A stretch of 64,000 bases of DNA, taken from positions 76,446,001 to 76,510,000 of the forward strand of contig OZ360238.1 of assembly GCA_977017645.1 (NCBI GenBank). The letters run 5' to 3'. The notes below the pieces were generated by a model that was given only the letters and a program-made list of their open reading frames with translations, was not told the origin of the DNA and searched no databases. Made by a program: the position numbers and the translations under genes. This stretch comes from Torpedo marmorata. Taxonomy: Eukaryota. Shown piece by piece: positions 12,749-63,476 of this stretch; position 1 is the stretch's first letter; every line of letters starts with the position of its first letter.

Positions 12749-13094
12749 TTTCACTCCCTTTTTACTTTAGTCTTGATAAAGGGCCCTGACCCAAAACATT
12801 GGCCATTTATATCCATGGATGCTGCCTGACCTCCTTGCGTTCCTCCAGCAGCTCATTGTTTGCTCAAGATTCCAGCATCTGCAGTTACTGTGTTTCTTTA
12901 CAGTAGGCTTTGTTGGAACAGTGCAAGATGCCTCAGAGAAGATAGAGCACAAATGAGTGGAAAACATCAAGTGGTATGCAACTGAAAGCTCAGGATTGTC
13001 CTTGTGGACAGAATGAATGTGCTCTGTGAAGCCATTTTGCATTGGTTTCTCCAACACAAAGGAGAACGCATCTTTAGCTCCAAAATGCAGTAGT

Positions 13095-23776: not shown

Positions 23777-25175
23777 AATCAGAATCAGAATTTTTTTTCA
23801 TGAACAAGTCATGAAATTCGGTGTTTTGCGGCAGCATCATAGTGCAAACATTCATATTATTACCATCTTACGACATTACTATAAAAAAAATATATATAAA
23901 TAATAGTACACGTAAAGTAAGGCAGTGTCTTTGGTTCATTGATTATTCAGGAATCTGATGGCAGCGGGGAAGAAGCTGTCCTTGTGCCGTTGAGTGCTCG
24001 ACTTTAGGCTCCTGTACCTTTTTCCCGATGGAAGCAGAGTGAAGAGGGCATGGCCTGGGTGGTGGGGGTCTTTGGGGACAGAGGCTGCTTTTTTAAGACA
24101 CCGTCTCGTGTAGATGTCCTCGATGGAGTGAACTGGTGCTTGTGATGTCACAGGCCGAGTTAACAACCCTCTGGAGTTTATTCTTGTCCTGAGAGTTGGC
24201 GCCTCCATACCAGGCAGTGATGCAACCAGCCAGAATGCTCTCCACGGTACACCTGTAGTTTACGAGAGTCTTCGGTGACATTCCTAATCTTCTCAGACAC
24301 CTCACAAAGGATAGCTGCTGGTGAGCCTTCTTTGTGATTGCATCAACGTGGAGGCTCCAGGACAGATCCTCGGAGATGTTGACTCCCAGGAATTTGAAGT
24401 TCTTGACCCTCTCCATTACTGAGCCCTCGATGAGGACTGGGTCATGTTCCCCTGACTTCCTCCTGAAGTCCACAATCATCTCCTTGGTTTTGCTGACGTT
24501 GAGCGCAAGGTTGTTGTCGTTACACCATTCAACGAGCTGATCTATCTCCCTCCTGTACGCTTCCTCATTGCCGTTTGTGATTCTGCGGACAACTGTGGTG
24601 TCATCGGCAAACTTGTAGATGGCATTGGAGTTGTGCCTGGCCACACAGTCATGGGTGTATAACGAGTAGAGCAGTGGACTAAGCACGCATCCTTGGGGTG
24701 CGCCTGTGTTGATAATCAGTGAGGAGGAGACGTTGTTTCCAATTCGTACTGACTGTGGTCTTCCAATGAGAAAGTCAAGGATCCTGTTGCAGAGAGGGGT
24801 ACAGAGGCCTAGAGTTTGTAGCTTCTTGACCAGCACTGAGGGAATAATGGTATTGAAGGCCGAGCTGTAATCGATGAAAAGCAGCCGTATGTATGAATTG
24901 CTGTTTTCGAGGTGATCCAGAGCTGAGTGGAGAACCAGCGATATTGCATCTGCTGTGGAGCGATTGTGACGATAGGCAAATTGCAGTGGGTCCAGATCTT
25001 TGCTTAGGTACGTGTTAATTCTGGCCATGACCAGCCTCTCAAAGCATTTCATCACAGTAGAAGTTAGTGCTAACTGGGCGGTAGACGTTGAGGCAGCTCA
25101 CATTACTCTTCTTGGGTGATTGATGCCCTTTTGAAGCAGGTGGGAACCTCTGACTGCCGCAATGAGAGGTTGAAA
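23777..25175 (-). mobile_element. Rex1/Babar LINE, 5'-truncated
   Basis: 320-aa RT ORF at 24093-25055 with the canonical motifs, plus the Rex1 tail. Confidence 0.93.
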
Positions 25176-28100
25176 ACAGAGAACGATGGAAATACTCAGC
25201 AAATTAGACAGCTGTATCCTAGCCACCGCCAAGAATAAAATTCTTAACATGGTAGTGCCCACCAATGAAGTGGAAACCCAGAGCTTCGTTGGCCTCTTAG
25301 GCTACTGGCAACAACACATTCCCCACCTTACAATGATACTCTGCCCATTATACCACGTCTCCAGGAAAAAAGCTACCTTTCAATGGGGTCCCGAGAGGCA
25401 AATGGCTTTCGACACGGCAAAACAGGCCGTTGAGCAGGCACTGCCACTAACCCCCCCACCCCCCGCCAGACAGGGTTCCCCTTCGAGCTACAGGTTTCTG
25501 CCATCACTACAATGGCTGAGTGGAGACTCTGGCAAAAGATGAAAGGTTGCAGAGTCCCACTCGGCTTCTGGACCAAGACCCTCCCTGAGACCGCCTCTCG
25601 CTAGAGCCCATTTGAGCGCCAGCTGCTAGTGTGCTAACTAGCACTCCTCGCCACCGAGCACCAAACGACAGGCGAGACCATCACTCTCCGACCTCACCTC
25701 CCCGTCATGTGATGGGTGAAGTCCACTGATGCCACCCACAACCAGGGTCGGGCCCAGCGGTGCTCCATTGTAAAGTGGAAGTGGTACATCGCGGACTACG
25801 CCGACCGAGGCTGGCTCTGAGGGGGTGAGCCGACTACACGAGCAGGTAATGTCCCTCCCCGAAAACGACACTCCCCCTCCCCATGTCCCTACAGTATCAC
25901 CCTCCCCAGGTCCCTGCAGTACACCCCTCCCCCGTAGCCTGGGGCCAGTATTTCGACACCAGCAGTATTCCAGACCAGCAGTAACAGGCCTGATTCGCAG
26001 ACGGCTCCAGCCGGTGGAAGAGAGGCAAGCACCTTAGGAAGGCAGTGGCGCTACACCCCGCCACGGGTAAGACACACAATAGGGGGCTGGCCGAGCTGGC
26101 CACGGTAGCACTCGCTCCGAGAAACCACAGGCCCTATCCGTATTTACACTGACTCCTGGGCAGTGGCCAACGGCATGGCTGTATGGATGGCCCAGTGGCA
26201 CGACATGGGCTGGAAAATTCAGTTCGCCCGCTCTGGAGTCAGCAGCACTGGCGGTTTATCTGGGGGCAGGCTGGGCAGAGTGCGCTCACGGTGCACCATG
26301 TGGACGCGCACAACAACAGAGACACGGTGGAGGCTGCACACAATGCTGCCATAGACCGCGCAGCACAATTTTGATCAGCCACCCTGCACCCCGATCACAC
26401 TGACCTCAGTGCACTGGAACATGGACGCACTGCAAGAGTGGGCATTTGGGGTCCCACGGCATGCGACGGTGGGAAGAGGGTCGAAAGGTGGCACTGATGC
26501 ACGACGAGGCTAGAACCGCAGTGGACAATTGCCCCACCTGACAGCATGTCAAACCGCTGGGCTGGCCAACGGGTCCACCGGGTCACCTTCGCTGCAGCAC
26601 GAGGGCAGGCCAGGTATGGCAAGTTGACTATGTCGGGCTGCTCCTAGGCCAAAATAAAAAGCAGTCCATCCTCACTATAGTCGACACATACTCAGGTGTC
26701 CTGGTGTCAGTGCCCTGCCAGAGAGCCGACCAGGACAGTCCCGTTCAAAGGCTGCAATACCTCTCTTCCATTCATAGGAGGTACAGTCCGACTAGGGGAC
26801 TCACTTCACGGAGGAGGTACAGTCCGACTAGGGGACTCACTTCACGGAGGAGGTACAGTCCGACTAGGGGACTCACTTCACAGAGAAGGTACAGTCCGAC
26901 TAGGGGACTCACTTCACGGAGGAGGTACAGTCCGACTAGGGGATTCACTTCACGGAGGAGGTACAGTCCGACTAGGGGACTCACTTCACGGAGGAGGTAC
27001 AGTCAGACTAGGGGACTCACTTCACGGAGGAGGTACAGTCCGACTAGGGGACTCACTTCACGGAGGAGGTACAGTCCGACTAGGGGACTCACTTCACAGA
27101 GGAGGTACAGTCCGACTAGGGGACTCACTTCACGGGGGAGGTACAGTCCGACTAGGGGACTCACTTCACAGAGGAGGTACAGTCCGACTAGGGGACTCAC
27201 TTCACGGGGGAGGTACAGTCCGACTAGGGGACTCACTTCACGGGGGAGGTACAGTCCGACTAGGGGACTCACTTCACGGAGGAGGTACAGTCCGACTAGG
27301 GGACTCACTTCACGGAGGAGGTACAGTCCGACTAGGGGACTCACTTCACGGAGGAGGTACAGTCCGACTAGGGGACTCACTTCACGGAGGAGGTACAGTC
27401 CGACTAGGGGACTCACTTCACGGGGGAGGTACAGTCCGACTAGGGGACTCACTTCACGGAGGAGGTACAGTCCGACTAGGGGACTCACTTCACGGGGGAG
27501 GTACAGTCCGACTAGGGGACTCACTTCACGGAGGAGGTACAGTCCGACTAGGGGACTCACTTCACGGGGGAGGTACAGTCCGACCAGGGGACTCACTTCA
27601 CGGAGGAGGTACAGTCCGACTAGGGGACTCACTTCACGGAGGAGGTACAGTCCGACTAGGGGACTCACTTCACGGGGGAGGTACAGTCCGACTAGGGGAC
27701 TCACTTCACGGAGGAGGTACAGTCCGACTAGGGGACTCACTTCACGGAGGAGGTACAGTCCGACTAGGGGACTCACTTCACGGAGGAGGTACAGTCCGAC
27801 TAGGGGACTCACTTCACGGAGGAGGTACAGTCCGACTAGGGGACTCACTTCACGGAGGAGGTACAGTCCGACTAGGGGACTCACTTCACGGGGGAGGTAC
27901 AGTCCGACTAGGGGACTCACTTCACGGAGGAGGTACAGTCCGACTAGGGGACTCACTTCACGGAGGAGGTACAGTCCGACTAGGGGACTCACTTCACGGA
28001 GGAGGTACAGTCCGACTAGGGGACTCACTTCACGGAGGAGGTACAGTCCGACTAGGGGACTCACTTCACGGAGGAGGTACAGTCCGACCAGGGGACTCAC

Positions 28101-30562
28101 TTCACGGAGGAGGTACAGTCCGACTAGGGGACTCACTTCACGGGGGAGGTACAGTCCGACTAGGGGACTCACTTCACGGAGGAGGTACAGTCCGACTAGG
28201 GGACTCACTTCACGGAGGAGGTACAGTCCGACTAGGGGACTCACTTCACGGAGGAGGTACAGTCCGACTAGGGGACTCACTTCACGGGGGAGGTAATGTC
28301 CGACCAGGGGACTCACTTCACGGAGGAGGTACAGTCCGACTAGGGGACTCACTTCACGGAGGAGGTACAGTCCGACTAGGGGACTCACTTCACGGGGGAG
28401 GTACAGTCCGACCAGGGGACTCACTTCACGGAGGAGGTACAGTCCGACTAGGGGACTCACTTCACGGGGGAGGTACAGTCCGACTAGGGGACTCACTTCA
28501 CGGAGGAGGTACAGTCCGACCAGGGGACTCACTTCACGGGGGAGGTACAGTCCGACTAGGGGACTCACTTCACGGGGGAGGTACAGTCCGACCAGGGGAC
28601 TCACTTCACGGGGGAGGTACAGTCCGACTAGGGGACTCACTTCACGGAGGAGGTACAGTCCGACCAGGGGACTCACTTCACGGAGGAGGTACAGTCCGAC
28701 TAGGGGACTCACTTCACGGAGGAGGTACAGTCCGACTAGGGGACTCACTTCACGGGGGAGGTACAGTCCGACTAGGGGACTCACTTCACGGAGGAGGTAC
28801 AGTCCGACTAGGGGACTCACTTCACGGAGGAGGTACAGTCCGACTAGGGGACTCACTTCACGGAGGAGGTACAGTCCGACTAGGGGACTCACTTCACGGA
28901 GGAGGTACAGTCCGACTAGGGGACTCACTTCACGGAGGAGGTACAGTCCGACTAGGGGACTCACTTCACAGAGGAGGTACAGTCCGACTAGGGGACTCAC
29001 TTCACGGAGGAGGTACAGTCAGACTAGGGGACTCACTTCACGGAGGAGGTACAGTCAGACTAGGGGACTCACTTCACGGAGGAGGTACAGTCCGACTAGG
29101 GGACTCACTTCACGGGGGAGGTACAGTCCGACTAGGGGACTCACTTCACGGAGGAGGTACAGTCCGACTAGGGGACTCACTTCACGGAGGAGGTACAGTC
29201 CGACTAGGGGACTCACTTCACGGAGGAGGTACAGTCAGACTAGGGGACTCACTTCACGGGGGAGGTACAGTCAGACTAGGGAACTCACTTCACGGAGGAG
29301 GTACAGTCAGATAGTGGACTCACTTCACGGAGGAGGTACAGTCCGACTAGGGGACTCACTTCACGGAGGAGGTACAGTCCGACTAGGGGACTCACTTCAC
29401 GGGGGAGGTACAGTCCGACTAGGGGACTCACTTCACGGAGGAGGTACAGTCCGACTAGGGGACTCACTTCACGGAGGAGGTACAGTCAGACTAGGGGACT
29501 CACTTCACGGAGGAGGTACAGTCCGACTAGGGGACTCACTTCACGGAGGAGGTACAGTCCGACTAGGGGACTCACTTCACGGGGGAGGTACAGTCCGACT
29601 AGGGGACTCACTTCACGGAGGAGGTACAGTCCGACTAGGGGACTCACTTCACGGAGGAGGTACAGTCCGACTAGGGGACTCACTTCACGGAGGAGGTACA
29701 GTCCGACTAGGGGACTCACTTCACGGAGGAGGTACAGTCCGACTAGGGGACTCACTTCACGGAGGAGGTACAGTCCGACTAGGGGACTCACTTCACGGAG
29801 GAGGTACAGTCCGACTAGGGGACTCACTTCACGGAGGAGGTACAGTCCGACTAGGGGACTCACTTCACGGAGGAGGTACAGTCCGACTAGGGGACTCACT
29901 TCACGGAGGAGGTACAGTCCGACTAGGGGACTCACTTCACGGAGGAGGTACAGTCCGACTAGGGGACTCACTTCACGGGGGAGGTACAGTCCGACTAGGG
30001 GACTCACTTCACAGAGGAGGTACAGTCCGACTAGGGGACTCACTTCACGGGGGAGGTACAGTCCGACTAGGGGACTCACTTCACGGAGGAGGTACAGTCC
30101 GACTAGGGGACTCACTTCACGGGGACAGAAGTACAGAATTGGGCGGGTGGAGGCTGGTATCTCGTGACTGCTGCACATCCCCTACCACCCACAGGCATCT
30201 GGCTTAATAGAACGTATGAATGGTCTACTTAAAGAGAATATTTGTACACTGACGCCCAAACATACATTGCAGGGGTTGCTCAGTGTGCTCCAGCAGGCAG
30301 TACACCAGTTAATTTAGCGCCCCACCAGGTAGGGGGGTTCCCCACTCTCACACTACCGGGCATCCTCCGATGCCCCCAAAACTGACGAAGTCGACATGCA
30401 AGACTCTGAGGAGTGCGTAGAGTGTGGGTGCAGCAGCCACAGGGTCCACTGTTAAAAGGGGAGATCATTGCACTTGGTCCGGGTGATACGCGATGGGTCG
30501 CGATACCGGGTGAATCAAACCTTTCATGTTACCATACTAACCAACTCACCAGACATGAGTGA
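25176..30562 (+). pseudogene. pol: Endogenous retrovirus pol remnant, ERV-L/class III-like (RT thumb, tether, RNase H, integrase)
   Basis: SFVGLLGYWQQHIPHL..PLY..RKKATFQWGPE; PLGFW..LP; SIVKWKWYI; IFTDSWAVANG; VHHVDAH; WQVDYVG..TIVDTYSG; after the tandem array HFTGTEVQNWA..HIPYHPQASGLIERMNGLLKE. Many stops and frameshifts; no LTR recognised. Confidence 0.88.
26777..30123 (+). repeat. 36-bp minisatellite, ~93 copies, derived from the integrase core
   Basis: Unit gaggtacagtccgactaggggactcacttcacgga(g/ggg variant), head-to-tail with no spacers; one reading frame gives EVQSD(*/Q)GTHFT(E/G). Confidence 0.97.
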
Positions 30563-33739: not shown

Positions 33740-34462
33740 GGAAATAAAACAAAGTGGGGGATTGTAGACTGCGAAGTAGGGAAGGGTTAGTTTGATCGTG
33801 GAGTTGGTTTATATTGGTTGGCACAACATTGTAGGCTGAAGGGCCTGTACTATACTGTTCTATATACATTTTACATACAAATTTAATCATTAGATTCAAA
33901 CCTATGTGTTAGTTCAATATATTTTTTGATGATTTTCAGAGTTTGGCGCAAGAACATGAAATGGAAACATCACTGCATGTAACCCACAACTCCGCTGTCC
34001 AAGGTGGATACAAATAACACCAGACAGCATTTGGAAGAAAAGGCAGACAGCTTTCCCTTGTGATGTGACCAAAACTGATGCCTCACTCAGTACAGGTATT
34101 ACCAAACTGAAGTATCCAGTCAATATGATATTGCTGGTGTGGGAGCTTGCTGTGAATAAACTGCATGGCACATTTCCTGTATTACTGCACTTCAAATAAG
34201 TATTCCTCTGGTTGAAAGCACTTTGGAGCATTTTATTGGAGATTCGGAGAACTATAAAATTGCAGGTGCTTTTTTAAAAAATTCTCCCCCTTGCACAAGC
34301 TCACGTTGTTTTTGTTTACATTCATCAGAATATCATCAATAAATGGTCCCATTTCTACGGTGATAGATTCCATTTCAGCAAATGGGATTGCATCAGGCAC
34401 CAGTATAACCATGTTCCAGATTAAATCAAGAATAAAATTACTGCAAATGCAATAATGAATTT

Positions 34463-35887
34463 AAAAAGGGTTCAAGGAGGAAGCCTGGCAATTATCGGCC
34501 TGTAAGTTTGACGTCTGTGGTAGGTAAATTAATGGAGAAAGTTCTCATAGATAGGACTTATAAATATCTGGATAGGCAGGGTCTGATCGGGAACTCTCAA
34601 CATGGATTTGTGAGCGGAAGGTCCTGTTTGACAAATCTGATTGAATTTTTTGAAGAGGTGACTAGGACTGTGGATGAGGGTAGTGCAGTGGATGTTGTCT
34701 ATATGGACTTCAGTAAGGCCTTTGATAAGGTTCCGCATGGAAGGTTAGTGAGGAAGGTGCAGTCTTTAGGTATAGATTCTGAGATAGTCAAATGGATTGA
34801 ACATTGGCTGGAGGGGAGAGGCCAGAGAGTGGTAGTGGATAATTGTTTGTCAGGTTGGAAGCCCGTGACAAGCGGTGTGCCTCAGGGATCTGTATTGGGC
34901 CCATTGTTGTTTGTTATATATATCAATGATCTAGATGATGGGGTGGTAAACTGGATTAGTAAATATGCAGATGATACCAAGATAGGTGGAATAGTGGATA
35001 ATGAAGAAGGTTTTCAAGGATTGCAGAAGGATTTGGGCTGCTTAGAAAAGTGGGCTGAAAAATGGCAGATGGAGTTTAATGCTGATAAGTGTGAGGTGCT
35101 TCATTTTGGAAAGAAGAATCAGAACAGGACATATGTGGTAAATGGGAGAGCATTGATGAATACAGAAGAGCAGAAAGATTTAGGAATAACGGTGCATCGT
35201 TCCCTGAAGGTGGAAACTCATGTGAATAGGGTGGTGAAGAAGGCTTTTAGTATGCTGGCCTTCATCAATCAATGCATAGAATATAGGAGTTGGGAAGTGA
35301 TGTTGAGATTATATAAGGCTTTGGTGCGGCCTAATTTAGAGTTCTGTGTGCAGTTCTGGTCGCCAAATTATAGGAAGGATATCAACAAAGTGGAGAGAGT
35401 GCAGAGAAGGTTTACCAGAATGTTACCTGGGTTTAAGAATTTAGAGTACAAGGAGAGATTGAGCAGATTAGGTCTTTATTCTTTGGAGCGTAGAAGGTTG
35501 AGAGGGGATTTGATAGAGGTATTTAAAATTATGAAAGGGATAGACAGAGTGGATGTGGATAGACTATTTCCATTAAGAATAGGAGAGATTGAAACAAGAG
35601 GACATGAGCTAAGAGTTAAGGGGCAGAGGTTTAGAGGTAACATGAGGGGGAACTTCTTTACTCAGAGAGTGGTAGCTGTGTGGAATGAGCTTCTGGGAGA
35701 AGTAGTGGCGGCAGAGTCAATTTTAGTATTTAAGAAAAAGTTGGACAAGTATATGGATGAGAGGGAAGTGGAGGGTTATGGGCAAGGTGCAGGTAGGTGG
35801 GACTAGATAGGAATGTTTTGGTTCGGTGCGGACTGGAAGGGCCTAATGGCCTGTTTCCGTGCTGTAATTGTTATATGGTTATATGGA
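34463..35887 (+). mobile_element. Young 5'-truncated CR1 with an uninterrupted RT ORF
   Basis: 432-aa ORF 34508-35806 ([25 protein letters not shown]); tail gttatatggttatatgg. Confidence 0.95.
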
Positions 35888-37087: not shown

Positions 37088-39255
37088 AATAAGAACATAA
37101 GAAACAGGAGCAGGAGTACGCCATTCGGCCCGTCGAGCCTGCTCCGCCATTCAATGAGATCATGGCTGATCTGATGATATGCTCATCTCCACCTACCTGC
37201 CTTTTCCCTATATAGGTAGTTCTTGACTTACGACCATAATTGGGACCGAAGAATTGGTCGTAAGTCGGATTCAATCTGCTGTGCATATCTGCTACCACCC
37301 CTACTACCATCAACATTATTTTCAATTTAAAACCTGGTTTCCAGCTCTAGTTGTTGTATTTACTTGAATTCTGGTCCTAGCTAATTCAAAGGAAACCCAT
37401 CTTTATGGAACAGCTCACCCACCCGAGCACCCGACGCCCCGACCGCCTACCCATCCGAGCTCCCGACGCACCAGCCACCCGCTCATCAGAGCTCCAGACG
37501 CCCCGACTGCCCACCCACGCGAGCTCCCGACGCCTCGGCCACCCGCCCACCGGAGCTCCCGATGCCCCCGACCGCGGATCCTTGCCTGGGCCGCCCGTCC
37601 ATCCGAGCTCCTGACGACCCAGACATGTCTGTTACCCATAATCCCCCACGCAGCTCTGCGTTTCCCTGGCAGCTGCGTGGGGGATTATGGGTAACGAAGA
37701 TGGCCATTGATCCTGCATTGAGCCGCCGCTCCTGTCCGAGTCCAATGATTACTTCTAACGAGTTTAAACACACTGCTGAGCAGCGTTAAGCTGTGAGCGT
37801 TCAGCGTCGTCGCACACTTTATTATACGATTTTTATGCAGGTGGACGTAACTCTCGTAGGTCGTAAGTTGAGGACTATCTGTATCCCTTAATTCCCCTAC
37901 TATGTAAAAATCTATCCAACCTTGTCTTCGATATATTTGTTGAGGTAGCCTCCACTGCTTCAATGGGCAGCGAATTCCAGATTCACCACCCTCTGGGAAA
38001 AGCAGTTCCTCCACATCTCCGTCCTAAATCTACTGCCCTGAATCTTGAGGCTATGTCCCCTAGTTCAGGTCTCCCCCACCAATGTAAACAACTTACCTAC
38101 CTCTATCTTATCTATGCCTTTCATAATTTTATTTGTTTCTATAAGATTCCCTCTCATTCTTCTAAATTCCAGCGAGTAAAATCCCAGACGATTCAATCTC
38201 TCCTCATAGGCTAACCCCCCTCATCTCTGGAATCAACCTGGTGAACCTCCTCTGTACCGCCTCCAAAGCCAGTACATCCTTCCTCAAGTAAGGAGACAAG
38301 AACTGCATGCAGTACTCCAGATGCAGTCTCACCAGTACCTTGTACAGTTGCAGCATAATCTCCCTGCTCCTAAACTCAATCCCTCTAGCAATGATGGCTA
38401 ACATTCCATTTGCCTTCTTGATAACCTGCTTCACCTGCAAACCGACCTTTTGCGATTCATGCACAAGCACTCCCAAGTCCTTTTGCACGGCAGCATGCTG
38501 CAATCACTTGCCATTTAAATAATACTCTCATCTTCCATTTTCCCTTCCAAAGTGGATAACCTCACATTTACCAACACTGTACTCCATCTGCCAGACCCTT
38601 GCCCACTCAATTAACCTATCTATATCTCTCTGCACTCTCCATATCCTCTGCACAATTTGCTTTTCTTCTCAATTTAGTGTCATCAGCAAACTTAGATACA
38701 CTACGCTCTGTCCCCTCTTCCAGATAGTTTATGTATACCGTGAACAGTTGTGGGCCCAGCACCAATCCCTGCGGCACTCCGCTCACCACTGATTGCCAAC
38801 CAGAAAAACACCCCTGTACCCCAACTCCCTGCTTTCTATTGGTTAACCAATCCTCTATCCATGCTAATACATCACTCCCAACTCTATGCATCCTTATCTT
38901 CTGTACAAGTCTTTTATGCGGCACCTTATTGAACACCTTCTGGAAATCCAGGTAAACAACAGCCATATGGTCTCCTCGATCTACCGCGCTCATTATATCC
39001 TCAAAAAACTCCAATAAATTTGTCAAATAGGACCCGCCTTTGCTGAATCCATGCTGCATCTGCCATTTTGCTCCAGCTTCAAGCATTTTCCCAACTACAG
39101 ATGTTAAACTAACCTGCCTTTTGCCTACATCCTTTTTTAATAGTGCCGCGACATTCGCCGTATTCCAATCCACTGGAACCTGCCCAGAGTCCAGAGAACT
39201 TTGGTAAATTATCACCAAAGCCTCGACTATAACTTCTGCCATCTCCTTTAACCTT
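37088..39255 (-). mobile_element. CR1 LINE 3' part (different subfamily), interrupted by a MITE
   Basis: RT remnants YLDFQKVF, GVPQG, KFADDTK; tail ttcttatgttcttat. Confidence 0.85.
37213..37881. mobile_element. Tc1/Tigger-like MITE
   Basis: TIRs taggtagttcttgacttacgacc / ggtcgtaagttgaggactatctg flanked by TA; splits the CR1 3' UTR; GC-rich degenerate internal repeats. Confidence 0.85.
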
Positions 39256-39259
39256 TCCC

Positions 39260-39885
39260 CTCTCATGCTACGCTGCTCGGCTTTGCTTTGTAGTCCGTGA
39301 TAGCGTGCATACCCTGCCATGCCGTGTGTCTGTGAGGTTCTCTTGGGACTCAAACTTGGTATGATACCATTTCTTGGCTTCCCTGATGGCCTCGTGGACA
39401 TCGTACTTGGATTTCTTGTAGAGAGCCAGGTCTCCTGACTTTAACACCTCTAATCTGTCCTTCAGCAGTGAATCAATTATGTGGCTCATCCATGGTTTCC
39501 AATTGGGGAATGCCTTTATTGTCTTCTTGGTCACACTGTTTTCTACACACTTACTGATGAAGTCGGCGTGGGCAGTGGTGTATTCATTGAGGTTGTTTGT
39601 CGAATCCATGAATACAGACCCGTCTGCTGACTCACAGTTACGTAGGATGTCGTCTGCATCCTCAGACCATCACCTAATGACTTTCACCACTGCCCCCCCC
39701 CCCCCCCTACCCCTTCAGCTTCTGCTTGTATGCAGGTAGCATCAGTACAGCCCAATGGTCTGACATGCCAAGTACGGGTGTGGGATGGAATGGTAGGCAT
39801 CCTTTATAGTTGTGTAGCAGTGGTCAAAGGTTTTGGGGCCTCTGGTGGGACAGGAGACATGCTGATGAAACCTGGGTAGGACACT
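39260..39885 (-). mobile_element. Rex1 internal fragment (endonuclease-RT linker)
   Basis: NEYTTAHADFISKCVE...FPNWKPWM...KYDVHEAIREAK. Confidence 0.7.
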
Positions 39886-45082: not shown

Positions 45083-46310
45083 AGCAACAAACAATCTCCT
45101 GGAGGAACTCAGCCAGTACAGCAGCATCAGTGGGAGAAAAATAAATTGTCAACATTTCAGGCTGGAACCCCTGACTGAGACTGAGGGTAGGTAGCCAATA
45201 TAATGTGGACAAGGTGAGAGGGATTGAACAATGAACCAAGGAGGGGTGAAGGATGACACACACAGGCAGTTGATTGGCAGGTGCCAGACAAAGGGAGAGA
45301 GAGAGGCAAGAAGAGAGAAAGGGATCAGTCATACAGGGTGGAGTGGATTGATTAGTGGAGACAAAGACTGCCAGTGCTGGAATCTGAAAAAAAAAATAGC
45401 GAGGTAATGAGAGCTGTTGGGGAAGAACTGTTAGAGAAGGTCAGATGAAACCAGATGGACCCAAAGAGGGGTGGGGGAAGAATCCAGGGGAATTGTCAGT
45501 AAAGTGGCTACAACGGGATCACCAAATGCAGTAGATGAGGTTAGAGAGATGCATGTGAATCTTTGCCTCACGTGGAAGTGTTGCTTAGGTCCCTTGATGG
45601 CAGTGGGGGAGGGAGAAAGAGCAAGCATCGCACCTCCTGTGGTTTCAGGGTAAAGTACCAGGGGTCACAGAGAGGTAAATAGGGAGAGATGAGTGGACAA
45701 AGGAGTCACAGAAAGAGTGGAAGGCAAAGGGTAGGGAGGGAGAATGTGGCTGTTTGTGGGGTTCAGTTGCAGCTGGTGGAAATGATGTGCTGAATGTGGA
45801 ATCTGGTGAGGTGACAGGACAGGGGAACCCTATCCTGGTTCTGTTTGGAGGAGGGGCAGTGAGAGAACTCTGAGAAATGAAGGAATTGCAGGTGATGGCT
45901 CTATTGACGTCATCCTTCACCAGCTTTCACTGGCCCCTGTCATACCTCTCACACCCTGTCCTCATTATACTGGCTATCTCCCGCTGCAGTCTTGATGAAG
46001 GTTTGAGATGTTGACTATTTCTCCTACTGATGCTGTTCAACCCACTGAGTTCCTCCAGCAATAAAATGCAAAAGTGTGAAGACACCTTGGTTGAAGTAAA
46101 AACACAATGCTGGAGAAACTCAGCAGGTCAATGTACTTTATGAGATGAAGGGGTCAAGCCCAAAACGTTGGTTATGTATCTTTATCTTTATTAAATAAAG
46201 TACACTGTTTGACCTGCTGAGTTTCTCCAGCATTGTGTTTTTAATAATTCCTCCAGCAGATTGTTTGTTGCTTTAGATTCCAGCATCTACAGTCTCCTGT
46301 GTGTCTCTAG
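45083..46310. mobile_element. Old PLE remnant with inverted pLTRs, 13-bp flanking direct repeat and a nested foldback mini-PLE
   Basis: taaaattcactgg at 45070-45082 and 46311-46323; ends agcaacaaacaatct.ctggaggaa / ttcctccagcagattgtttgttgct are inverted; internal KGPKQHFHVRQRFTC. Confidence 0.72.
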
Positions 46311-48706: not shown

Positions 48707-48976
48707 AACGAACAAAGGAACTGCTCACACTAACCATCTCATATGTACAAAACAATACTTATTTATTTATCTGTATCAGTGGTTTTCAAACTGCCCCCCT
48801 AAACACATATTCCACCTTAAGCAATCCCTATGCCATAATTGCTCTGTGATTAGTAAGGAAAAAAAAAAAAAAAGTAAACACGAAAATCTGTAGACACCGT
48901 GGTTAGAGTGAAAAACACAAAAGCTGGAGAACTCAGCAGGTCAAACAGTGTCTTTTATGTAGCAAAGGTAGAAATA

Positions 48977-49017
48977 TATAACCGACGTTTCAGGCTTGAG
49001 CCCTTCTTCAAAGTATG
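48977..49017 (-). ncRNA. Minimal hammerhead ribozyme in the 3' pLTR
   Basis: catact-TTGAAGA-a-GGGC tcaa GCCT-GAAA-cg-TC-ggttata on the minus strand. Confidence 0.72.
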
Positions 49018-49202
49018 AGAAAATGCCGGCAGACGTCCGAACAAAGGAGTGAGGGGGGGAGGGGGGTGGCAAAGGCAGGAGATAATAGGTGGAGAAAGGA
49101 GGGAGGGGACAGTAGCAAAGAGGGGGAGGAGGGATGGCTGGGTAGCTGGAGAAACACAGGAAGGACAGGTGAGGGGGGAGGGGAAGGGAACAACAAGCAG
49201 GT

Positions 49203-51383
49203 TTAGTGGAAAGCAGAAAAGTCAATGTTAATTCCATCTGGCTGGAGTGTGCCGAGACGGAATATGAGATGTTGTTCCAACAGTTTGCGGGTAGTCTGGG
49301 TGGGATAGTACATGAGGCCATGGACAGACATGTGAGTGTGGGAGTGTGACCCAGAATTGAAATGGTTGGCCACTGGGAGGTCGCTGTTGTTGCGAACCGA
49401 GCGGAGGTGCTGAGCGAAGCGATCTCCCAATCTACGACCGGTCTCTCCAATGTATAGAAAGCCACAAAGGGAGCACCGGATGCAGTAAATAAGTCCTCTG
49501 GATGTACAAGTGAAGTGTTGCTTCACTTGGAAGGCCTGTTTGGGGCCCTGGACTGTGGTGAGGGGGGAGGTGTGGGCGCAGGTGTTGCACCTCCTGCGGG
49601 CACAGGGGAAGGTTCCGGGGGTGCGATGGGTGGGGAGGGACGAGTGCACGAGTGAATCACGGAGGGAGCGGTCCCTACGGAAGGCCGAGAGGGGAGGAGA
49701 AGGAAAAATGTGTCTGGTGGTGGGATCCTGCAGCAAGTGCCGGAAATTCCGGCGGATAATGTGTTGGATGCGGAGGCTGGTGGGGTGGTAGGTGAGGATG
49801 AGGGGTATTCTATGTTTGTTGTGTCTGGGGGCAGAGGGGGCCAGGGCAGATGAGCGGGAAATGGAGGAGATGCGGGTGAGGGCTGAGTTGATGGTGGTGG
49901 AGGGGAAGCCACGTTTGTGGAAAAAGGCAGACATTTCAGAAGATCTGGAGTGGAACACCTCATCTTGGGAACAGATGCGGCGGAGGCGGAGAAATTGAGA
50001 GAAGGGGATGGAGTCCTTGCAGGGGACAGGGTGTGAGGATGTGTAGTCCAGATAGTTGTGGGAGTTGGAGGGTTTGTAGTAAATGTCGGTGGAAAGCTTG
50101 TCTCCCGAGATGGAGACAGAGAGATCCAGGAAGGGGAGAGTGTTATCGGAGATGGACCAGGTGAGTTTGAGATCGTGGTGAAAGTTGGATGCGAAGTGGA
50201 TGAAGTTGACAAGCTCATCGTGGGTGCATGAGGCAGCCCCGATGTAGTCGTCGATATACCGGAGGAAGAGATGAGGGGTCTTGCCTGTGTAGGCTTGCAG
50301 CATGGATTGCTCCACAAAGCCCACAAACAGGCAGGCGTAGCTGGGACCCATGCGGGTACCCATGGCTACTCCTTTGATTTGGAGGAAGTGGGATGAGTTG
50401 AAGGAGAAGTTATTGAGAGTAAGGACAAGTTCTGCCAGGCAGAGGAGGGTGGTGGTAGAGGGTGACTGGTCGGGTCTTTGGTCCAGGAAGAAGCGAAGTG
50501 CTTTCAGACCTTCTGTGTGGGGGATGGAGGTATAAAGGGATTGGACATCCATGGTGAAGATGATGCGGTCCGGTTCAGGGAATCTGAAGTCATTGAGGAG
50601 ATGGAGGGCATGTGAGGTGTCGCGGATGTAGGTGGGGAGGGATTGGACCAGGGGAGAAAAGATGGAGTCAAGGTAAGATGAAACTAGTTCGGTGGGGCAG
50701 GAGCAGGCAGAAACAATGGGTCTGCCCGGATGGTTGGGTTTGTGTATCTTGGGTAGAAGGTAGAAACGGGCAGTGCGGGGGTGGGGGAGAATGAGGTTGG
50801 TGGCCGTGGAGGGGAGGTGACCGTAGGTGATGAGGTCGGAGATGGTGTTGGAGACAGTGGCTTGATGTGCTGTGGCGGGATCCTGTGGGAGGGGTCGGTA
50901 GGAGGAGGTGTCTGAGAGTTGTCGACTGACCTCGGCAAGGTAGAGGTCAGTGCGCCAGACCACAACCGCACCGCCCTTGTCTGCGGGTTTGATGGTGAGG
51001 TTGGGATTGTTGCGGAGAGAGTGGAGGGCAGAGCGTTCTGAGGAGGTGAGGTTGGAATACGAGAGGGGGGTGGTGAAGTTGAGACGGTTGATGTCTCGGC
51101 GGCAGTTGGAAATAAAAAGGTCCAGAGCGGGCAGCTGGCCAGGGCGGGGTGTCCAGGAAGAGGAAGAAGGATTGAAGCGAGAGAAAGGGTCTTGGGTGGG
51201 GGGTGGAGAATCACGGTCATGGAAGTGAGCACGGAGGCGGAGGCGACGGAAGAAGAGTTCGGCATCATGGCGTGCGCGGAACTCGTTGAGGTGTGGGCGG
51301 AGGGGGACGAAGGTGAGGCCTCTACTGAGGACGGAGCGCTCCGTCTCAGAGAGGGGAAGGTCGGAGGGGATAGTAAAAACCAA
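49203..51383 (-). CDS. PLE reverse transcriptase + GIY-YIG endonuclease (C-terminal reading frame)
   Basis: PADKG, LPKIHK, GRPIVS, MDVQSLYT, GVAMGTRMGPSYA, RYIDD, FLD, Cys linker CARRRCNTC, LIYCIRCSLCGFLYIGETGR..R..H..HF..E..N; no stops in 726 codons. Confidence 0.95.
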   Translation of the reverse strand: MVFTIPSDLPLSETERSVLSRGLTFVPLRPHLNEFRARHDAELFFRRLRLRAHFHDRDSPPPTQDPFSRFNPSSSSWTPRPGQLPALDLFISNCRRDINRLNFTTPLSYSNLTSSERSALHSLRNNPNLTIKPADKGGAVVVWRTDLYLAEVSRQLSDTSSYRPLPQDPATAHQATVSNTISDLITYGHLPSTATNLILPHPRTARFYLLPKIHKPNHPGRPIVSACSCPTELVSSYLDSIFSPLVQSLPTYIRDTSHALHLLNDFRFPEPDRIIFTMDVQSLYTSIPHTEGLKALRFFLDQRPDQSPSTTTLLCLAELVLTLNNFSFNSSHFLQIKGVAMGTRMGPSYACLFVGFVEQSMLQAYTGKTPHLFLRYIDDYIGAASCTHDELVNFIHFASNFHHDLKLTWSISDNTLPFLDLSVSISGDKLSTDIYYKPSNSHNYLDYTSSHPVPCKDSIPFSQFLRLRRICSQDEVFHSRSSEMSAFFHKRGFPSTTINSALTRISSISRSSALAPSAPRHNKHRIPLILTYHPTSLRIQHIIRRNFRHLLQDPTTRHIFPSPPLSAFRRDRSLRDSLVHSSLPTHRTPGTFPCARRRCNTCAHTSPLTTVQGPKQAFQVKQHFTCTSRGLIYCIRCSLCGFLYIGETGRRLGDRFAQHLRSVRNNSDLPVANHFNSGSHSHTHMSVHGLMYYPTQTTRKLLEQHLIFRLGTLQPDGINIDFSAFH

Positions 51384-52744
51384 GCAGGGGTTAGAGTGGG
51401 GATCGGTGTTGTGGAGGGTGTTGGGGGGAGGGTTGGGGAGGTCAGAGGGGGGAGGTGGAGGGTGGGGGAGGTTGGAGGGAGGGGGAGGGGGGGTCGGAGG
51501 AGGGAGGTGGGGGGTAGGGGAGGTGGGAGGGTGGGAGAGGGGGGTAGGGAGGGTAGCCAGAGAGAGGGGGGGGGGATGGAGGGAAGGGAAGGGATGAGGT
51601 CTGAGGGTTGGGGAGGAGAGTGGGGCAGAGAGGGGGAGATGGGGGTGGAGTAGGGAGAGGTGTGGGAGGAGAAGGAAGGAGTAGTGAGGGGGATAGGTAA
51701 GTGGGATCTTGTTGCGAGATGAGGACTCCAGTGGCAGTCAGCGTGGGAGGCTCCAGCAGGTAACAGTCTGTGTCGGGAGTCAGCGGTGGAGGCATCGGGA
51801 ACTCTGGTGAGTAGAGGCTCGGGGTCCGGGCTGGGGTTGGCGGCCGTAGCGTCGGGAGTACCGTCGTGTCGGCGCCCGGGGTGCGGGTAGGAGCAGGCGG
51901 CTGCGGCGTTGGGAGCTTCGGTGAGTCGGCGGCCGGCGCCCAGGGTCGGGTCGGCAGCCGTCGCGTTGGGAGCTCTGGTGAGTCTGCGGCCGGGACCAGG
52001 GATCGGGTCGGCGGCTGCGTCGTTGGGAGCTCCGTTGAGTCGGCGGCTGGGGTCCAGGGTCGGGTCGGCAGCCGTCGCGTTGGAAGCTCCGGTAAGTCGG
52101 CGGCTGGGGTCCAGGTTCAGGTCGGCGGCTGCGGCGTGGGGAGCTCCGGTGAGTCGGAGGCTGGGACCAGGGATTGGGTCGGCGGATGCGGCGTTGGGAG
52201 CTCCGGAGAGCAGGCGGCCGGGGCCGAGATGGGGATCCACGTGGAGGGTTGCAGAGGCTGCAGTTTCAAGGGAGGCAAGCTTACGGTTCTTGATGGATGC
52301 CAGGTAGGTGTAGAGCCGGCGGTTGAACGCGTGGATCCGGCGGCGGATGTAGTATAGGAGGGGTCCGCTGCAGGCCATGGCCAGCGAGGTCCGGAGCTGT
52401 GGCAGGGAGAGGGCGAGTTGCCGCTGGTATCTCCGCATCGAGGTGAGGGTGGTGCGGAGGAGTCTTTGGGAGAAGCGGAGAGAGCAGCAGTCGATGCTGT
52501 GGAGGTACCTGAGATCTTTGTGGGGGCCAAACTGCGAGGCCTGGAACCGAAGCTGGAAACCACGAGGCACAAGATGATGGCGGAGGCAAGTAGCAAGGAA
52601 GGCAACGTGGCTGTGGAATCGAGTCTGGGTGAGTACATGGTCATAGAGCTTGAGAGCAGCAGGGGTTGCAGATGGGGAGCAGTGAGAGAGAATACCACAG
52701 AACTCCCTTCGGAGAGCAAAGGCGAACTTCTTCAGGGTAGGCAT
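51384..52744 (-). CDS. PLE N-terminal domain (ATG at 52744), joined to RT by a net -1 frameshift in a C-rich tract
   Basis: HVAFLATCLRHHLVPRGF matches the H..FL..C....L.P.G N-terminal PLE motif; followed by 19-aa repeats and a Pro/Ser-rich linker; ATG-to-RT-stop span is 3542 nt (3n+2). Confidence 0.75.
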
Positions 52745-52887
52745 CCCTCAAAGAGTTTTCACAGAGTTGTTGTAGAATTTAAAAGTAAACACGAAAATCT
52801 GTAGACACCGTGGTTAGAGTAAAAAACACAAAAGCTGGAGAACTCAGCAGGTCAAACAGTGTCTTTTATGTAGCAAAGGTAGAAATA

Positions 52888-52928
52888 CATAACCGACGTT
52901 TCAGGCTTGAGCCCTTCTTCAAAGTATG
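52888..52928 (-). ncRNA. Minimal hammerhead ribozyme in the 5' pLTR
   Basis: catact-TTGAAGA-a-GGGC tcaa GCCT-GAAA-cg-TC-ggttatg on the minus strand. Confidence 0.72.
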
Positions 52929-53437
52929 AGAAAATGCCGGCAGACGTCCGAACAAAGGAGTGAGTGGGGGAGGGGGGGTGGCAAAGGCAGGAGATAATAG
53001 GTGGAGAAAGGAAGAAAAAGTTTGAAAACCACTGTTTTAATCGTTCCTAATTGACCGTTATGTGCACGGTTTCATAACTCCAAAGGAAATGGGCCAATGA
53101 CAATTTTTTTCAAGCAAAATATTTCAGTAACAATTGGGTCTAGAGCAGTGGTTCCCACTCACATACCACCTTAAGCAATCCCTTACTAATCACAGAGCAC
53201 TTATGGCATAGGGATTGCTTAAGGTGAATGTGAGTTTAGGGGGGTAGTTTGAAAACCACTGATCTGTATAGATGAAATACTTGTCCTGCATATGTATTGT
53301 TTGTCTGTATGTGTGTTTATGTCCAGTTGTGTGTGTCTGCAGGTTTTGCATCAAGGACCGGAGAACGCTGTTTCGTTGGGTTGCACTTGTACAATCAGAT
53401 GACAACAAACCTGACAACTTGAAACCAATTCTCTGCC

Positions 53438-54755
53438 ACTCATCCACTTCGCATTTAACTTCCACCACGATCTCAAACTCACCTGGCCCATCTCCGATAA
53501 CACTCTCCCCTTCCTGGATCTCTCTGCCTCCATCTCAGGAGACAAGCTTTCCACCGATATTTACTACAAACCCTCCAACTCCCACAACTATCTGGACTAC
53601 ACTTCCTCACACCCTGTCCCCTGCAAGGATTCCATCCCCTACTCTCAGTTTCTCTGTCTCCGCTGCATCTGTTCCCAAGATGAGGTCTTCCAGTCCAGAT
53701 CTTCTGAAATGTCTGCCTTTTTCCACAAACGTGGCTTCCCCTCCACCACCATCAACTCAGCCCTCACCCACATCTCCTCCATTTCCCGCTCATCTGCCCT
53801 AGCCACCTCAGCCGCCAGATGCAACAAACATAGAATCCCACTCATCCTCACCTACCACCCCACCAGCCTCCGCATCCAACACATTATCCGCTGGAATTTC
53901 CGGCACTTACTACAGGATCCCACCACCAGACACATTTTTCCTTCTCCTCCCCTCTCGGCCTTCTGTAGGGACCGCTCCCTCCGCGATTCCCTCGTGCACT
54001 CATCCCTCCCCACCCATTGCACCCCCGGCACCTTCCCCTGTGCCCGCAGGAGGTGCAACACCTGCCCCCTCACCATGGTCCGGGGCCCTAAGCAGGCCTT
54101 TCAAGTGAAACTACACTTCACTTGTACATCCAGAGAACTTATTTACTGCATCCGGTTCTCCCTTTGTGGCTTTCTCTACATCGGAGAGACCGGTCGTAGA
54201 TTGGGAGATCGCTTTGCTGAGCACCTCCTCTCCGTCCGCAACAACAGCGACCTCCCAGTAGCCAACCATTTCAATTCCGGGTCACACTCCCACACTCACA
54301 TGTCTGTCCATGGCCTTATGTACTATCCCACCCAGACTACCCGCAAATTGGAGGAACAACATCTCATTTTCCGTCTAGGCACTCTCCAGCCAGATGGCAT
54401 TAACATTGACTTTTCTGCTTTCCACTAAAACCGCTTGTCTTTTCCTCCCCCCCCCCTCACCTGTCCTTCCTGTTTTTCCACCCACCCAGCCATCCCTCCT
54501 CCCCCTCTTTGCTGCTGTCCCCTCCCTCCTTTCTCTACCTATCATCTCCTGCCTTTGCCACCCCCCCCCTCACTCTTTTGTTCGGACGCCTGCCGGCATT
54601 TTCTCATACTTTGATGAAGGGCTCAAAACCGAAACATCGGTTATGTATTTCTACCTTTGCTACATAAAAGACACTGTTTGACCTGCTGAGTTTCTCCAGC
54701 ATTTGTGTTTTTTTACTTCAACCACGGTGTCTACAGATTTTCGTGTTTTACTTTT
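53438..54755 (+). mobile_element. 5'-truncated Neptune-type PLE, inverted relative to the full-length copy
   Basis: ORF 53709-54428 nearly identical to the C-terminus of 49203-51383; pLTR with a mutated hammerhead at 54605-54645. Confidence 0.93.
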
Positions 54756-55157
54756 TTTAATCCATCACATCCCCACTGATTTTCTGGTCATCCATCAATA
54801 TTAGGTTTAAGTTGCCAATAAACCTACCAGCATGTCATTGGGATATGACAGGAAAACAAGAGTATCTGGGAGAATCCCACACATTCACAGGAAGAATGTG
54901 CAAATTCCACTAAGAACCCGATTGCTGCAGATGTGCAGCGACAGCACGAGTTGCTTAACCGCTAGGCCTGACACTTTAAAAACTGAAGGAATTGGGGAAT
55001 TCTCCAAACCACTGACTGAAAGTTGCATGGTCCCACTGTAAGAATTGTCTCACAACTTCAAAATGTTTCCAACAATCACTATCAACCACAGTGTTCAGTT
55101 AAGATCAGTTCTGTAATGTCAGGACAGGCCTGATTATCTTCTCTGTCAAATACAGAT

Positions 55158-61689: not shown

Positions 61690-63476
61690 ACAAGGGACAC
61701 CTGACAGCTGTGGCAGGGCCTAAATGCCATAACCTGTTACAAAACCAAATCTGGTAAAGCAGCAGACGGCAAAGCTTCTCTCCCAGAGGAATTCAATGCC
61801 TTCGACGCCCGATGTGACGACAGTAACAGCGAAGAACCACCCCTCCGCACCCCCACGTCCCCTAATGATCGCATCCTGTCCGTATATGAGGACGTCATGC
61901 GTGCTGCCTTCAGGAGAGTGAATCCGAAGAAAGCATCCTGCCCAGCTGGAGTACCTGGCCGAGTATTAAAGATCCGTGCTGACAACTGACCAAGGTATTC
62001 ACGGATATCTTCAATATCTCACTCCAGCAGGGCGTAGTACCCACCTGTTTCAAACAGGCGTCAATCATATAAGAGTGTAGTTGCCTGCCTTAATGACTAT
62101 CGACAGTGATGAAGTGTTTTGAAAGGCTGGTGATGAAGCATATCAGCTCCTGTCTGAGCGGTAACATGGATACATTCCAGTTCGCCTACCGTAGTAACAG
62201 GTCTACGGCGGATGCCATCTCACTGACTCTACACAAAGCCCTGGAACACCTGGACAGCAAAGATGCATACATCAGGATGCTCTTTATCGACTACAGTTCG
62301 GCATTGAACACCATCATCCCCTCAAAACTGATCAGCAAACTCCAACACCTGGGAGTTAACACCACACTGTGTAATTGGATCATGAATTTCCTCATCTCCA
62401 GACCACAATCAGTGAAGATTGGTAAGAACATCTCTTCCACAATCTCCATCAGTACCAGAGCACCACAGGGCTGTGTTCTTAGCCCCCGGCTCTACTCACT
62501 TTAGACCTACGACTGTGTAACTCGGTACGACAATAACACCATCTACAAATTTGCCAACGATACCACGGTAGTAGGTTGTATAAAGGAAGGGGATGAGTCA
62601 GCATACAGGATGGAGATTGAAAACTTGGCTGAATGGTGTACCAACAACAACCTTGCACTCAATGTCACCAAAACTAAGGAGCTGATTGTTGACTTCAGGA
62701 AAGGAAAGCCAGAGGTATACAATCCAGTGATCATTGGGGGATCAGAGGTGGAGAGGGTGAGCAAATTTAAGTTCTTGGGAGTCACTATCTCGGAGGATCT
62801 TTCCTGGACCCAACACACCAATGGCATCGTGAAGAAAGCACATCAGCGCCTCTACTTCCTCAGGAGTTTGCGGAGGTTTGGTATGACACCAGAAACCCTG
62901 GCAAATTTCTGCAGAGGTGTGGTAGAAAGTGTGCTGACTGGCTGCATCACGGTCTGGTATGGGAACACCAATACCCCTGAGCGTAAAGTCCTCCAAAAGG
63001 TAGTGGACACAGCCCAGGACATCACAGGCAAAACCCTCCCCACTATTGTGTACATCTATAGGGAACACTGCCGTTGGAGAGCAGCAGCAATCATCAAAGA
63101 CCCACACCACCCAGCACATGCTCTGTTCTCGCTGCTGCCATCAGGAAAGAGGTATAGGTGCCACAAGACTCGCACCACCAGGTTCAGGAACAGCTGCTAC
63201 CCCTCCACCATCAGACTCCTCAACGACAAACTCAATCAGAGACTCATTTAAGGACTCTTAATTGTGCACTTTATTGATTTTCTTTTGTTCTCTCTGTTTG
63301 TTTACATTCGTTATCTGTTTATAGTTCTTTTATTTGTTTACATGTTTATGCTGTGTACAGTCTATTTTTGCAATATCAATTAGTGGTAATTCTGCCGCGC
63401 CTGCAGGAAAAAGGAATCTCAGGGTCCTATGTGATGTCATGTATGTACTCTGACAATAAATCTGAAATCTGAAATC
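61690..63476 (+). mobile_element. Rex1/Babar LINE, degenerate
   Basis: [39 protein letters not shown]; tail tgacaataaatctgaaatctgaaatct. Confidence 0.92.

Follow-up and report, generated by a model that had tools for sequence, protein, structure and literature searches.

The 64,000-nt stretch of Torpedo marmorata DNA analysed here (the window) carries on its minus strand an endonuclease-bearing (EN+) Penelope-like element (PLE) that has a Neptune-like linker and belongs to a high-copy elasmobranch family. It is a full-length, partial-tandem insertion arranged as pseudo-LTR (pLTR), ORF and pLTR, and as assembled the copy is frameshifted. Taken as a whole, we consider it quite probable that the element entered a presumably hAT-like MITE, that reverse transcription started in tandem or read-through RNA, that its hammerheads are weak and dispensable, and that slippage broke its reading frame. 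The open reverse transcriptase (RT)-EN frame of 844 codons (49203..51737, minus strand) encodes a PLE-type RT with DKG and the core motifs including YIDD, a Zn-finger-like linker (CARRRCNTC, i.e. CX4CxxC) and, following the EN+ PLE definition in PMC8557442, a C-terminal GIY-YIG endonuclease with CCHH, in which LIYCIRCSLCGFLYIG, FAQH and NHF are found. Profile matches lie slightly below the cut-off for RVT_1 (E 1.8e-6, 28.3 bits; cut-off 29.6) and below it for GIY-YIG (E 2.5e-4, 21.7 bits; cut-off 22.6). The linker fits CX2-5CxxC, which is also present in 106 of the 120 homologues listed, and the best named homologues among these matches are shark and ray proteins (66-78% identity). A PDB search gave 0 matches and a search of viral contigs 0 relatives. 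Neptune-clade EN+ PLEs (PMC8557442), including Neptune of Acropora digitifera (PMC4209133, Table S1 and Fig. S3), share the layout, DKG, RT, CX2-5CxxC and C-terminal GIY-YIG with CCHH, and the Acropora hammerhead is alike in its 4-bp stem II opened by GGGC and in having CGUC around the cut; this element differs in its ~300-codon linker, its broken frame and U3 in place of C3. We use the term "Neptune-like" because the CX2-5CxxC linker is also a Nematis feature and the likeness to the Acropora hammerhead is only a lead. The sequence-only identification of a PLE with a minimal hammerhead in each pLTR and an uninterrupted RT and GIY-YIG frame is borne out by the domains and the published hammerheads (PMC4209133); the element is EN+, and its Zn linker is of the Neptune/Nematis type.

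The earlier claim of near-identical direct repeats, each with a minimal hammerhead, is likewise confirmed. The 5' pLTR (52781..53012, minus strand, 232 nt) represents the 3'-terminal part of a tandem unit truncated at its 5' side, and the 3' pLTR (48870..49100, minus strand, 231 nt) ends in a T-run 114 nt past the predicted cut. The two are identical at 228 of 232 positions, differing by three substitutions and one indel, and both carry changes that are absent from the other three copies in the window. The element sits within a host MITE, the left part of which (53013..53261, minus strand) contains a terminal inverted repeat and is bordered by an 8-bp target duplication at 53269-53262, and the right part of which (48777..48858, minus strand) is bordered by the duplication at 48776-48769; contig joints lie at 53012/53155. 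From the 8-bp duplication, we take the MITE to be hAT-like. Where it meets the PLE, the MITE arm lacks about 25 nt, and the PLE itself is not flanked by a target duplication.

The 5' minimal type I hammerhead (52888..52928, minus strand) and its 3' counterpart (48977..49017, minus strand) are predicted to cut after 52895 and 48984. C17 falls at exactly these positions, 3911 nt apart, as had been proposed from the letters alone. Each repeat contains U3 followed by UGAAGA (U3·G8, A7), an extra A after A9, a 4-bp stem II closed by G·U, GAAA and a palindromic ACGU; the 3' motif has the same core and has lost the outer stem I pair (C·A). The full motif occurs three times in the window compared with none in 200 mononucleotide shuffles. 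An Rfam search returned no hammerhead match at E values up to 1, and the call draws on pattern, context and literature. The pLTR hammerheads of metazoan PLEs (Cervera and De la Peña 2014, PMC4209133) are also type I motifs without loop 3, with a palindromic 15.2-16.2 and an extra nucleotide between 9 and 10.1, and occur once per pLTR at ~3-4 kb spacing. The extra nucleotide, GAAA, the palindrome and an NUH triplet are all present here; the hammerheads are true homologues of the published minimal PLE motifs. The G10.1-C11.1 pair, described there as highly conserved, is missing from this element: both repeats have G10.1·U11.1, compared with G-C in the other three window copies. Given this change in both motifs and the missing stem I pair of the 3' motif, the element's hammerheads are, as judged from their sequence, poorer than those of the sister copies. 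Folding of the monomers gave -6.5 (5') and -4.0 (3') kcal/mol for the hammerhead fold compared with an MFE of -11.5 kcal/mol, and the MFE fold is predicted to sequester the core and the cut site; in each whole pLTR, the stem I pair probability is 0.00, although such predictions leave out protein and tertiary contacts. The modelled folds and the analogy with other PLEs suggest that the hammerheads are probably weak, dependent on a dimer or on protein, and dispensable for mobility. The published in vitro activity of PLE hammerheads is low, for dimers too (PMC4209133).

The core itself departs from the usual C3-G8 or compensated U3-A8 pair: U3·G8 is present in all five family pLTRs of the window. 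The sequence-only reading had taken U3 as fixed in all family copies, and this holds for the window, which is the scope of the count, and not for family-wide fixation; position 52922 lies outside the 40 of 599 variants listed, which are uninformative on U3 either way. The alignment in PMC4209133 lacks a chondrichthyan; here, all five repeats that a high-copy family has in the window carry U3·G8. When metagenome contigs were scanned for the motif, C3 was present in 117 of 128 matches, including 20 of 20 matches across the 19 loci with a PLE ORF match; because C3 dominates, U3 is a departure from the norm. A 'GGCAY' motif was seen 5' of the core in 10 of the 128 control matches, a lead that came to nothing. 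Many PLE hammerhead variants, which may already include U3·G8, are reportedly covered by Lünse et al. (RNA Biol). Among the 56 representatives in Fig. S3 of PMC4209133, one, Saccoglossus kowalevskii (1), has the identical UUGAAGA core, and two have U3-A8. Single changes in the CUGA turn led to low activity in one hammerhead (PMC9901934).

These observations raise the question of whether the hammerheads are dead relics carried within a pLTR that serves as a promoter or protein-binding site, with U3 marking a function lost before amplification. We regard this as possible though doubtful. U3·G8 occurs without a compensating A8, four of the five window copies have further hammerhead damage, and Naiad PLEs proliferate well without a hammerhead (PMC8557442), all of which would fit a relic. 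Two-sided changes are found in none of the 10 stem I/II pairs, but the five rows are near-identical and too alike to reveal covariation either way. Moreover, U3·G8 has also been published for a hammerhead of another PLE family, so this state arose more than once, and the least damaged copy (9171) retains an otherwise intact core. That a strongly amplified U3 family retains its core, stem II and palindrome may reflect selection on cleavage. According to PMC8557442 and PMC11167929, the role of PLE hammerheads is not settled; this family, being very abundant and having an uncompensated U3·G8 core, offers material for a copy-population test of core selection. If the hammerhead of this amplified lineage is inactive or nearly so on its own, the lineage would naturally test whether Penelope elements need their hammerheads.

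The 3' ends bear on which RNA served as template. All four family 3' ends in the window stop at one T-run; this T-rich site lies ~114 nt past the hammerhead cut, and 36 nt separate it from the ATG downstream. Because these ends lie past the cut, the template was either uncleaved or re-ligated; a doubly cleaved linear RNA of 3911 nt is disfavoured, since it would be missing the 114 nt present at all four ends. We consider a template uncleaved at both sites the likely form and one re-ligated into a circle an unlikely one. A comparable case is PAc, a Poseidon element of Anolis carolinensis (PMC11167929), which shares the tandem organisation, a pLTR hammerhead near the ORF start and a constant 3' end of insertions at an internal position 3' of the hammerhead. 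PAc is of a different clade and has its ATG inside the hammerhead, with reverse transcription starting 111-118 nt into the ORF, whereas in this element the ATG is 150 nt past the cut and the 3' ends are 36 nt before it. In the Anolis element, the one PLE reconstituted in vitro, hammerhead cleavage was dispensable and required the protein; the template was predominantly unprocessed RNA, and RNA-seq showed no ends at the cut (PMC11167929), data that come from another clade (Poseidon). By analogy, the GIY-YIG domain would nick the target, and reverse transcription would start at the U-rich site within a tandem or read-through transcript. It would then copy the hammerhead, the whole ORF and the second hammerhead and stop 118 nt upstream of the second cut site, and the cDNA would be joined to the target at a 3-nt microhomology with loss of ~25 nt of target.

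An alternative is that the two hammerheads pair through ACGU and excise the 3911-nt unit, the ends of which ligate, and that reverse transcription over more than one lap of the circle yields pLTR-ORF-pLTR. The geometry agrees, as one lap plus 232 nt equals the insertion; palindrome and core are kept, and the same model has been proposed in print (PMC4209133). The changes that set this pLTR pair apart from the three other window copies would also fit, but are equally expected from a tandem parent. Against it, the stem III duplex between the two hammerheads amounts to only -3.1 kcal/mol for sites 3.9 kb apart, and U3·G8, G·U at 10.1-11.1 and competing folds all burden cleavage; the dominance of unprocessed template in Anolis, with 0 reads ending at the cut, speaks against it as well. 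We therefore judge excision through a circle to be rather unlikely. The excision and circle idea in the sequence-only reading stands in that the anatomy fits it equally well, yet nothing favours a circle over uncleaved template. Judging from the anatomy, the predicted circle junction would equal the sequence of any tandem genomic pLTR, so RT-PCR across it would not be diagnostic. PLEs with two hammerheads are already described in PMC4209133, among them Neptune elements of fish and coral, as are the dimer model and the idea of a circle.

Returning to the element with its uncleaved template as the likely route, its coding unit is not intact. The N-terminal PLE domain (52250..52744, minus strand, ~165 aa), which has homologues at the N-termini of PLE polyproteins encoded by one ORF, begins at ATG 52744 in a frame that stays open to 50684 and is not the RT frame: the ATG sits 1007 nt (mod 3 = 2) 5' of the RT frame, the first Met of which is residue 396. 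N-terminal domain, RT and EN are therefore not in a single ORF in this copy. In contrast, the domain shares an ORF with RT in 65 of the 120 homologues listed, and in 57 of the 62 of those with at least 850 aa. The linker from N-terminal domain to RT spans ~300 codons compared with a median of ~32 residues in homologues; it contains 57-nt degenerate tandem repeats (51896..52225, minus strand, 5.8 copies, 78% matches) read in the N-terminal frame and a C-rich, Pro-rich part holding the frame break (51405..51709, minus strand), with a C10 run at 51575-51566 that varies in length among family contigs. Slippage within the C-rich linker is the most likely source of the break, as an indel that is either real or an assembly error, and because of it the full polyprotein cannot be made from the assembled copy. 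Splicing as a frame fix was rejected, since the best donor (52284) yields an intron length of 0 or 1 mod 3 whichever acceptor 3' of the RT-frame stop is used, and neither restores the frame. Programmed frameshifting is disfavoured, as no structure was predicted 3' of the C10 run (MFE 0.0). No majority frame-restoring indel was present among the 12 of 17 indels listed. The description of the element as near-intact thus applies to its full-length anatomy and not to its coding unit.

The frame split could instead be a conserved shark and ray feature, bridged by recoding or slippage, which would make the copy coding-competent and, if true, would add a recoding step to Neptune biology; we found no description of such a two-frame design for Neptune elements in the literature. 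Two gene models, P0126 (Hemiscyllium) and P0127 (Chiloscyllium), likewise pass from the N-terminal domain into the wrong frame of RT that this copy shows, but the N-terminal frame is open far into RT, so gene callers preferentially report that direction of shift. Similarly, no full-length fused elasmobranch protein occurs among the 120 homologues listed or the 115 matches to the N-terminal part, yet in the ray model P0128 (Hypanus) a single frame leads from N-terminal domain to RT, and a single ORF is the rule in the long homologues. Narcine model P0209 was set aside as uninformative because of its several frame switches. In contigs of run X1, the frame-neutral -3 form of the C10 run (31) outnumbers the -2 form (13); these contigs cannot settle the frame, because depth over 51409-51552 is ~20-fold under the next bin. 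With no stimulatory structure and only C-runs as 'slippery' sites, we find a conserved split improbable. The further proposal of a very high-copy, Neptune-like shark and ray lineage that combines a near-inactive U3·G8 hammerhead with N-terminal and RT-EN frames joined by C-rich-linker slippage is more doubtful still.

The family to which this slippage-broken copy belongs has a high copy number with 5'-truncation. In run X1, 329,802 contigs were placed on the element, using a stretch with a single pLTR, with depth ~30-fold higher at the 3' end than in the N-terminal region; the contigs cannot show RNA ends. An index-free search with the N-terminal part gave the 115 matches, and the blanks from word-indexed searches reflect insensitivity. 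The family variants at positions 51956, 51785 and 51782 cause no amino-acid change when read in the N-terminal frame. Four residues depart from conserved columns (C433, S557, N558 and F611), and the last three are not private damage, as they are common to both long window copies. Among the 40 of 599 variants listed, 13 coding positions differ from at least 90% of X1 depth, nine of them synonymous and four non-synonymous. This 9:4 excess points to a recently selected lineage rather than a long-dead copy; of the proposal that the element is young and possibly recently active, the recently amplifying lineage is retained, and the copy itself, being frameshifted, is probably not autonomous.

Two direct repeats bound the element on the minus strand, a 5' repeat of 232 nt (53012-52781, -) and a 3' repeat of 231 nt (49100-48870, -), and three substitutions and one indel separate them. 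Each repeat contains a minimal type I hammerhead motif comprising U3-U4-G5-A6-A7-G8-A9, an extra A, a 4-bp stem II, GAAA, an ACGU palindrome and C17. The C17 residues lie at 52895 (5' hammerhead) and 48984 (3' hammerhead), confirming the 3911-nt spacing of predicted cut sites given in the sequence-only reading. The complete motif occurs three times in the window versus 0 times in 200 mononucleotide shuffles, and searching Rfam up to an E-value of 1 matched no hammerhead. By all structural tests run, the element is an EN+ (endonuclease-bearing) Penelope-like element (PLE). Its Zn linker is like that of Neptune but is also found in Nematis (PMC8557442), and its hammerhead resembles the Acropora Neptune row in Fig. 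S3 of PMC4209133; together, the linker and the hammerhead suggest that it is Neptune-like. Shark and ray proteins with 66-78% identity are its best named homologues, and from these we infer an elasmobranch host.

The U3·G8 combination departs from the canonical hammerhead core, and U3 is indeed present in every family copy of the window (5/5 repeats), as had been claimed. When metagenome contigs were scanned with position 3 left free as a control, at least 128 matches in at least 122 loci were obtained; among the matches listed, position 3 was C in 117, U in 5, A in 4 and G in 2, and at the 19 of these loci that also had a PLE ORF match, 20/20 matches carried C3. In Fig. S3 of PMC4209133, which covers 56 representative hammerheads, the UUGAAGA core recurs in the PLE-linked row Saccoglossus kowalevskii (1), and U3-A8 is found in two rows from Schistosoma. 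A U3 core plus an insertion is known from a saltern ribozyme (PMC7151607). Given the predominance of C3 in the control scan and these precedents in print, U3 is unusual but not new. A literature text search, outside of which Lünse et al. fell, turned up no discussion of a PLE family with U3·G8. Hammerhead-like relics of other pseudo-LTR (pLTR) families were seen at 19746 (+), with C3, and at 12773 (+), with U3 and a damaged core.

Judged from their sequence, the ribozymes of this element would be worse than the best of the family. Stem II is closed by G10.1·U11.1 in both hammerheads, against G-C in the other three window copies, and the 3' hammerhead has lost one stem I pair. The hammerhead fold is predicted at -6.5 (5') and -4.0 (3') kcal/mol versus an MFE of -11.5 kcal/mol, the predicted MFE fold sequesters the core and the cut site, and the predicted pair probability of stem I within each whole repeat is 0.00. 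Two-sided changes were seen in 0/10 stem pairs in a covariation check of five near-identical rows. A deep scan of a different hammerhead found low activity for CUGA-turn changes apart from a C-G swap (PMC9901934).

In the window, the four insertions of this family all terminate at the same T-run, 114 nt past the predicted cut site, and the 5' repeat extends 118 nt upstream of its own predicted cut site. Reverse transcription thus copied across both sites, and the sequence beyond the cut sites on both insertion ends excludes a doubly cleaved linear RNA as template. The ~3.9-kb unit previously proposed as excisable and circularisable therefore fails in its linear form, and its circular form is retained as a rather doubtful alternative. 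The insertion ends are also compatible with a ligated circle, an idea that is not new, being the published hypothesis of PMC4209133; however, the same source reports low activity of PLE hammerheads even as dimers, and in the Anolis Poseidon element reverse transcription begins internally and hammerhead mutants leave insertion unaffected (PMC11167929). The Anolis ribozyme cleaves only with protein, and no RNA-seq reads ended at its cut (PMC11167929). Because of the low activity in PMC4209133, the Anolis results and the CUGA-turn scan, we reasonably favour an uncleaved template over a circle; this would be a tandem or read-through transcript, primed internally, and the predicted ribozymes would be weak and dispensable.

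The PLE lacks its own target duplication at this insertion, and its 5' junction shows 3-nt microhomology. It is nested in a small element with inverted repeats (53261-48777), whose 8-bp target duplication is intact and which we take to be hAT-like. The other arm of this host element, and joints present in all four runs, indicate that ~25 nt of target was lost at the PLE insertion.

The interval between the repeats contains an 844-codon open frame (51737-49203, -). Its product includes DKG, the RT motifs, a CX4CxxC linker and a CCHH endonuclease; the RT and GIY-YIG matches score slightly below the Pfam cut-offs. A second frame starts at ATG 52744, 36 nt past the 5' repeat and offset from the RT frame by 1007 nt (mod 3 = 2), and its first ~165 residues form the N-terminal PLE domain. 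This domain and RT share one ORF in 65/120 homologues, a figure that becomes 57/62 among those of at least 850 aa. This copy lacks the single ORF of an autonomous copy, running from the N-terminal domain through RT and EN; with that domain out of frame and an RT frame whose first Met comes only at residue 396, its description as a near-intact coding unit does not hold.

Two positions at which the family varies, 51710 and 51713, show synonymous changes when read in the N-terminal frame, and in the RT frame the 51710 variant creates a stop codon. This places the frame break on the 3' side of 51710, within the C-rich linker. The C10 run there varies in length; among the 12 of 17 indel rows listed, contigs of the sequencing run X1 mapped on the element show a -3 form (31) and a -2 form (13). 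As 12 of 17 rows are listed and X1 depth over 51409-51552 is ~20-fold lower than in the next bin, these counts are at most a tentative guide to the family state of the C10 run. No frame-restoring acceptor was found for the best splice donor, and no structure is predicted in the RNA 3' of the C10 run, which counts against classical -1 frameshifting. The Hemiscyllium (P0126) and Chiloscyllium (P0127) gene models enter the same wrong RT frame, as they would if the split were conserved rather than private to this copy; yet the Hypanus model (P0128) is in frame, and gene callers prefer a shift in this direction because the N-terminal frame has no stop until deep within RT, and we regard a conserved split as quite improbable. 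The Narcine model (P0209), with several internal frame shifts, was set aside. P0126 and P0127, shark models labelled 'mucin-2-like' or uncharacterised, consist of a PLE N-terminal domain followed by off-frame RT, like window 52744-50684.

With 40 of 599 variants listed, there are 13 coding positions at which the copy disagrees with ≥90% of the X1 depth, 9 synonymous and 4 non-synonymous (23 of the 40 were scored, including all at ≥90%). Mismatches to the two long window copies number 61 in 328 codons and 62 in 318 codons. It deviates from 4/154 strongly conserved columns; three deviations are common to both long copies, and the fourth is C433. The earlier view of a young copy is partly upheld in that the lineage looks recently selected, but the two repeats of the copy differ at four places, so either it is not brand new or its parent had unequal repeats.

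The family is very abundant, with 329,802 X1 contigs mapped on 49105-53400. X1 depth at the 3' end is ~30 times that of the N-terminal region, a profile repeated in three other runs, and this is the usual 5'-truncation gradient. Three 5'-truncated copies in the window are 89-92% identical: 8590-9307, 11455-12751, which has a 14-bp target duplication, and 53440-54758 (+), which retains an open 333-codon RT/EN part. The last lies inverted relative to the element, 430 nt upstream, with the end of the host MITE and its target duplication between, and is therefore probably a separate insertion. In a single X1 contig, N-terminal coding sequence is joined directly to the 3' UTR (49139-52456, 3316 nt skipped), which possibly represents an internally deleted derivative.

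A related PLE pLTR left a palindromic stump at 46071-46242, in which an inverted 3' piece stands head to head with a hammerhead-bearing piece whose core is damaged. Degenerate 32-nt repeats at 37416-37575, weakly similar (E about 1e-4) to the 57-nt linker repeats of the PLE, are perhaps a relic linker; no PLE domain match was found near them. The tandem array at 26776-30122 (93 copies of a 36-nt unit, 97% matches), in which each strand carries long open frames, is probably a minisatellite. Non-LTR (LINE) fragments at 1262-5264, 9228-10025, 17515-19031, 23887-25097, 34436-35806, 38616-39440 and 62167-63251, which as a group give RT, AP endonuclease and PF09004 matches, are ordinary repeat background.
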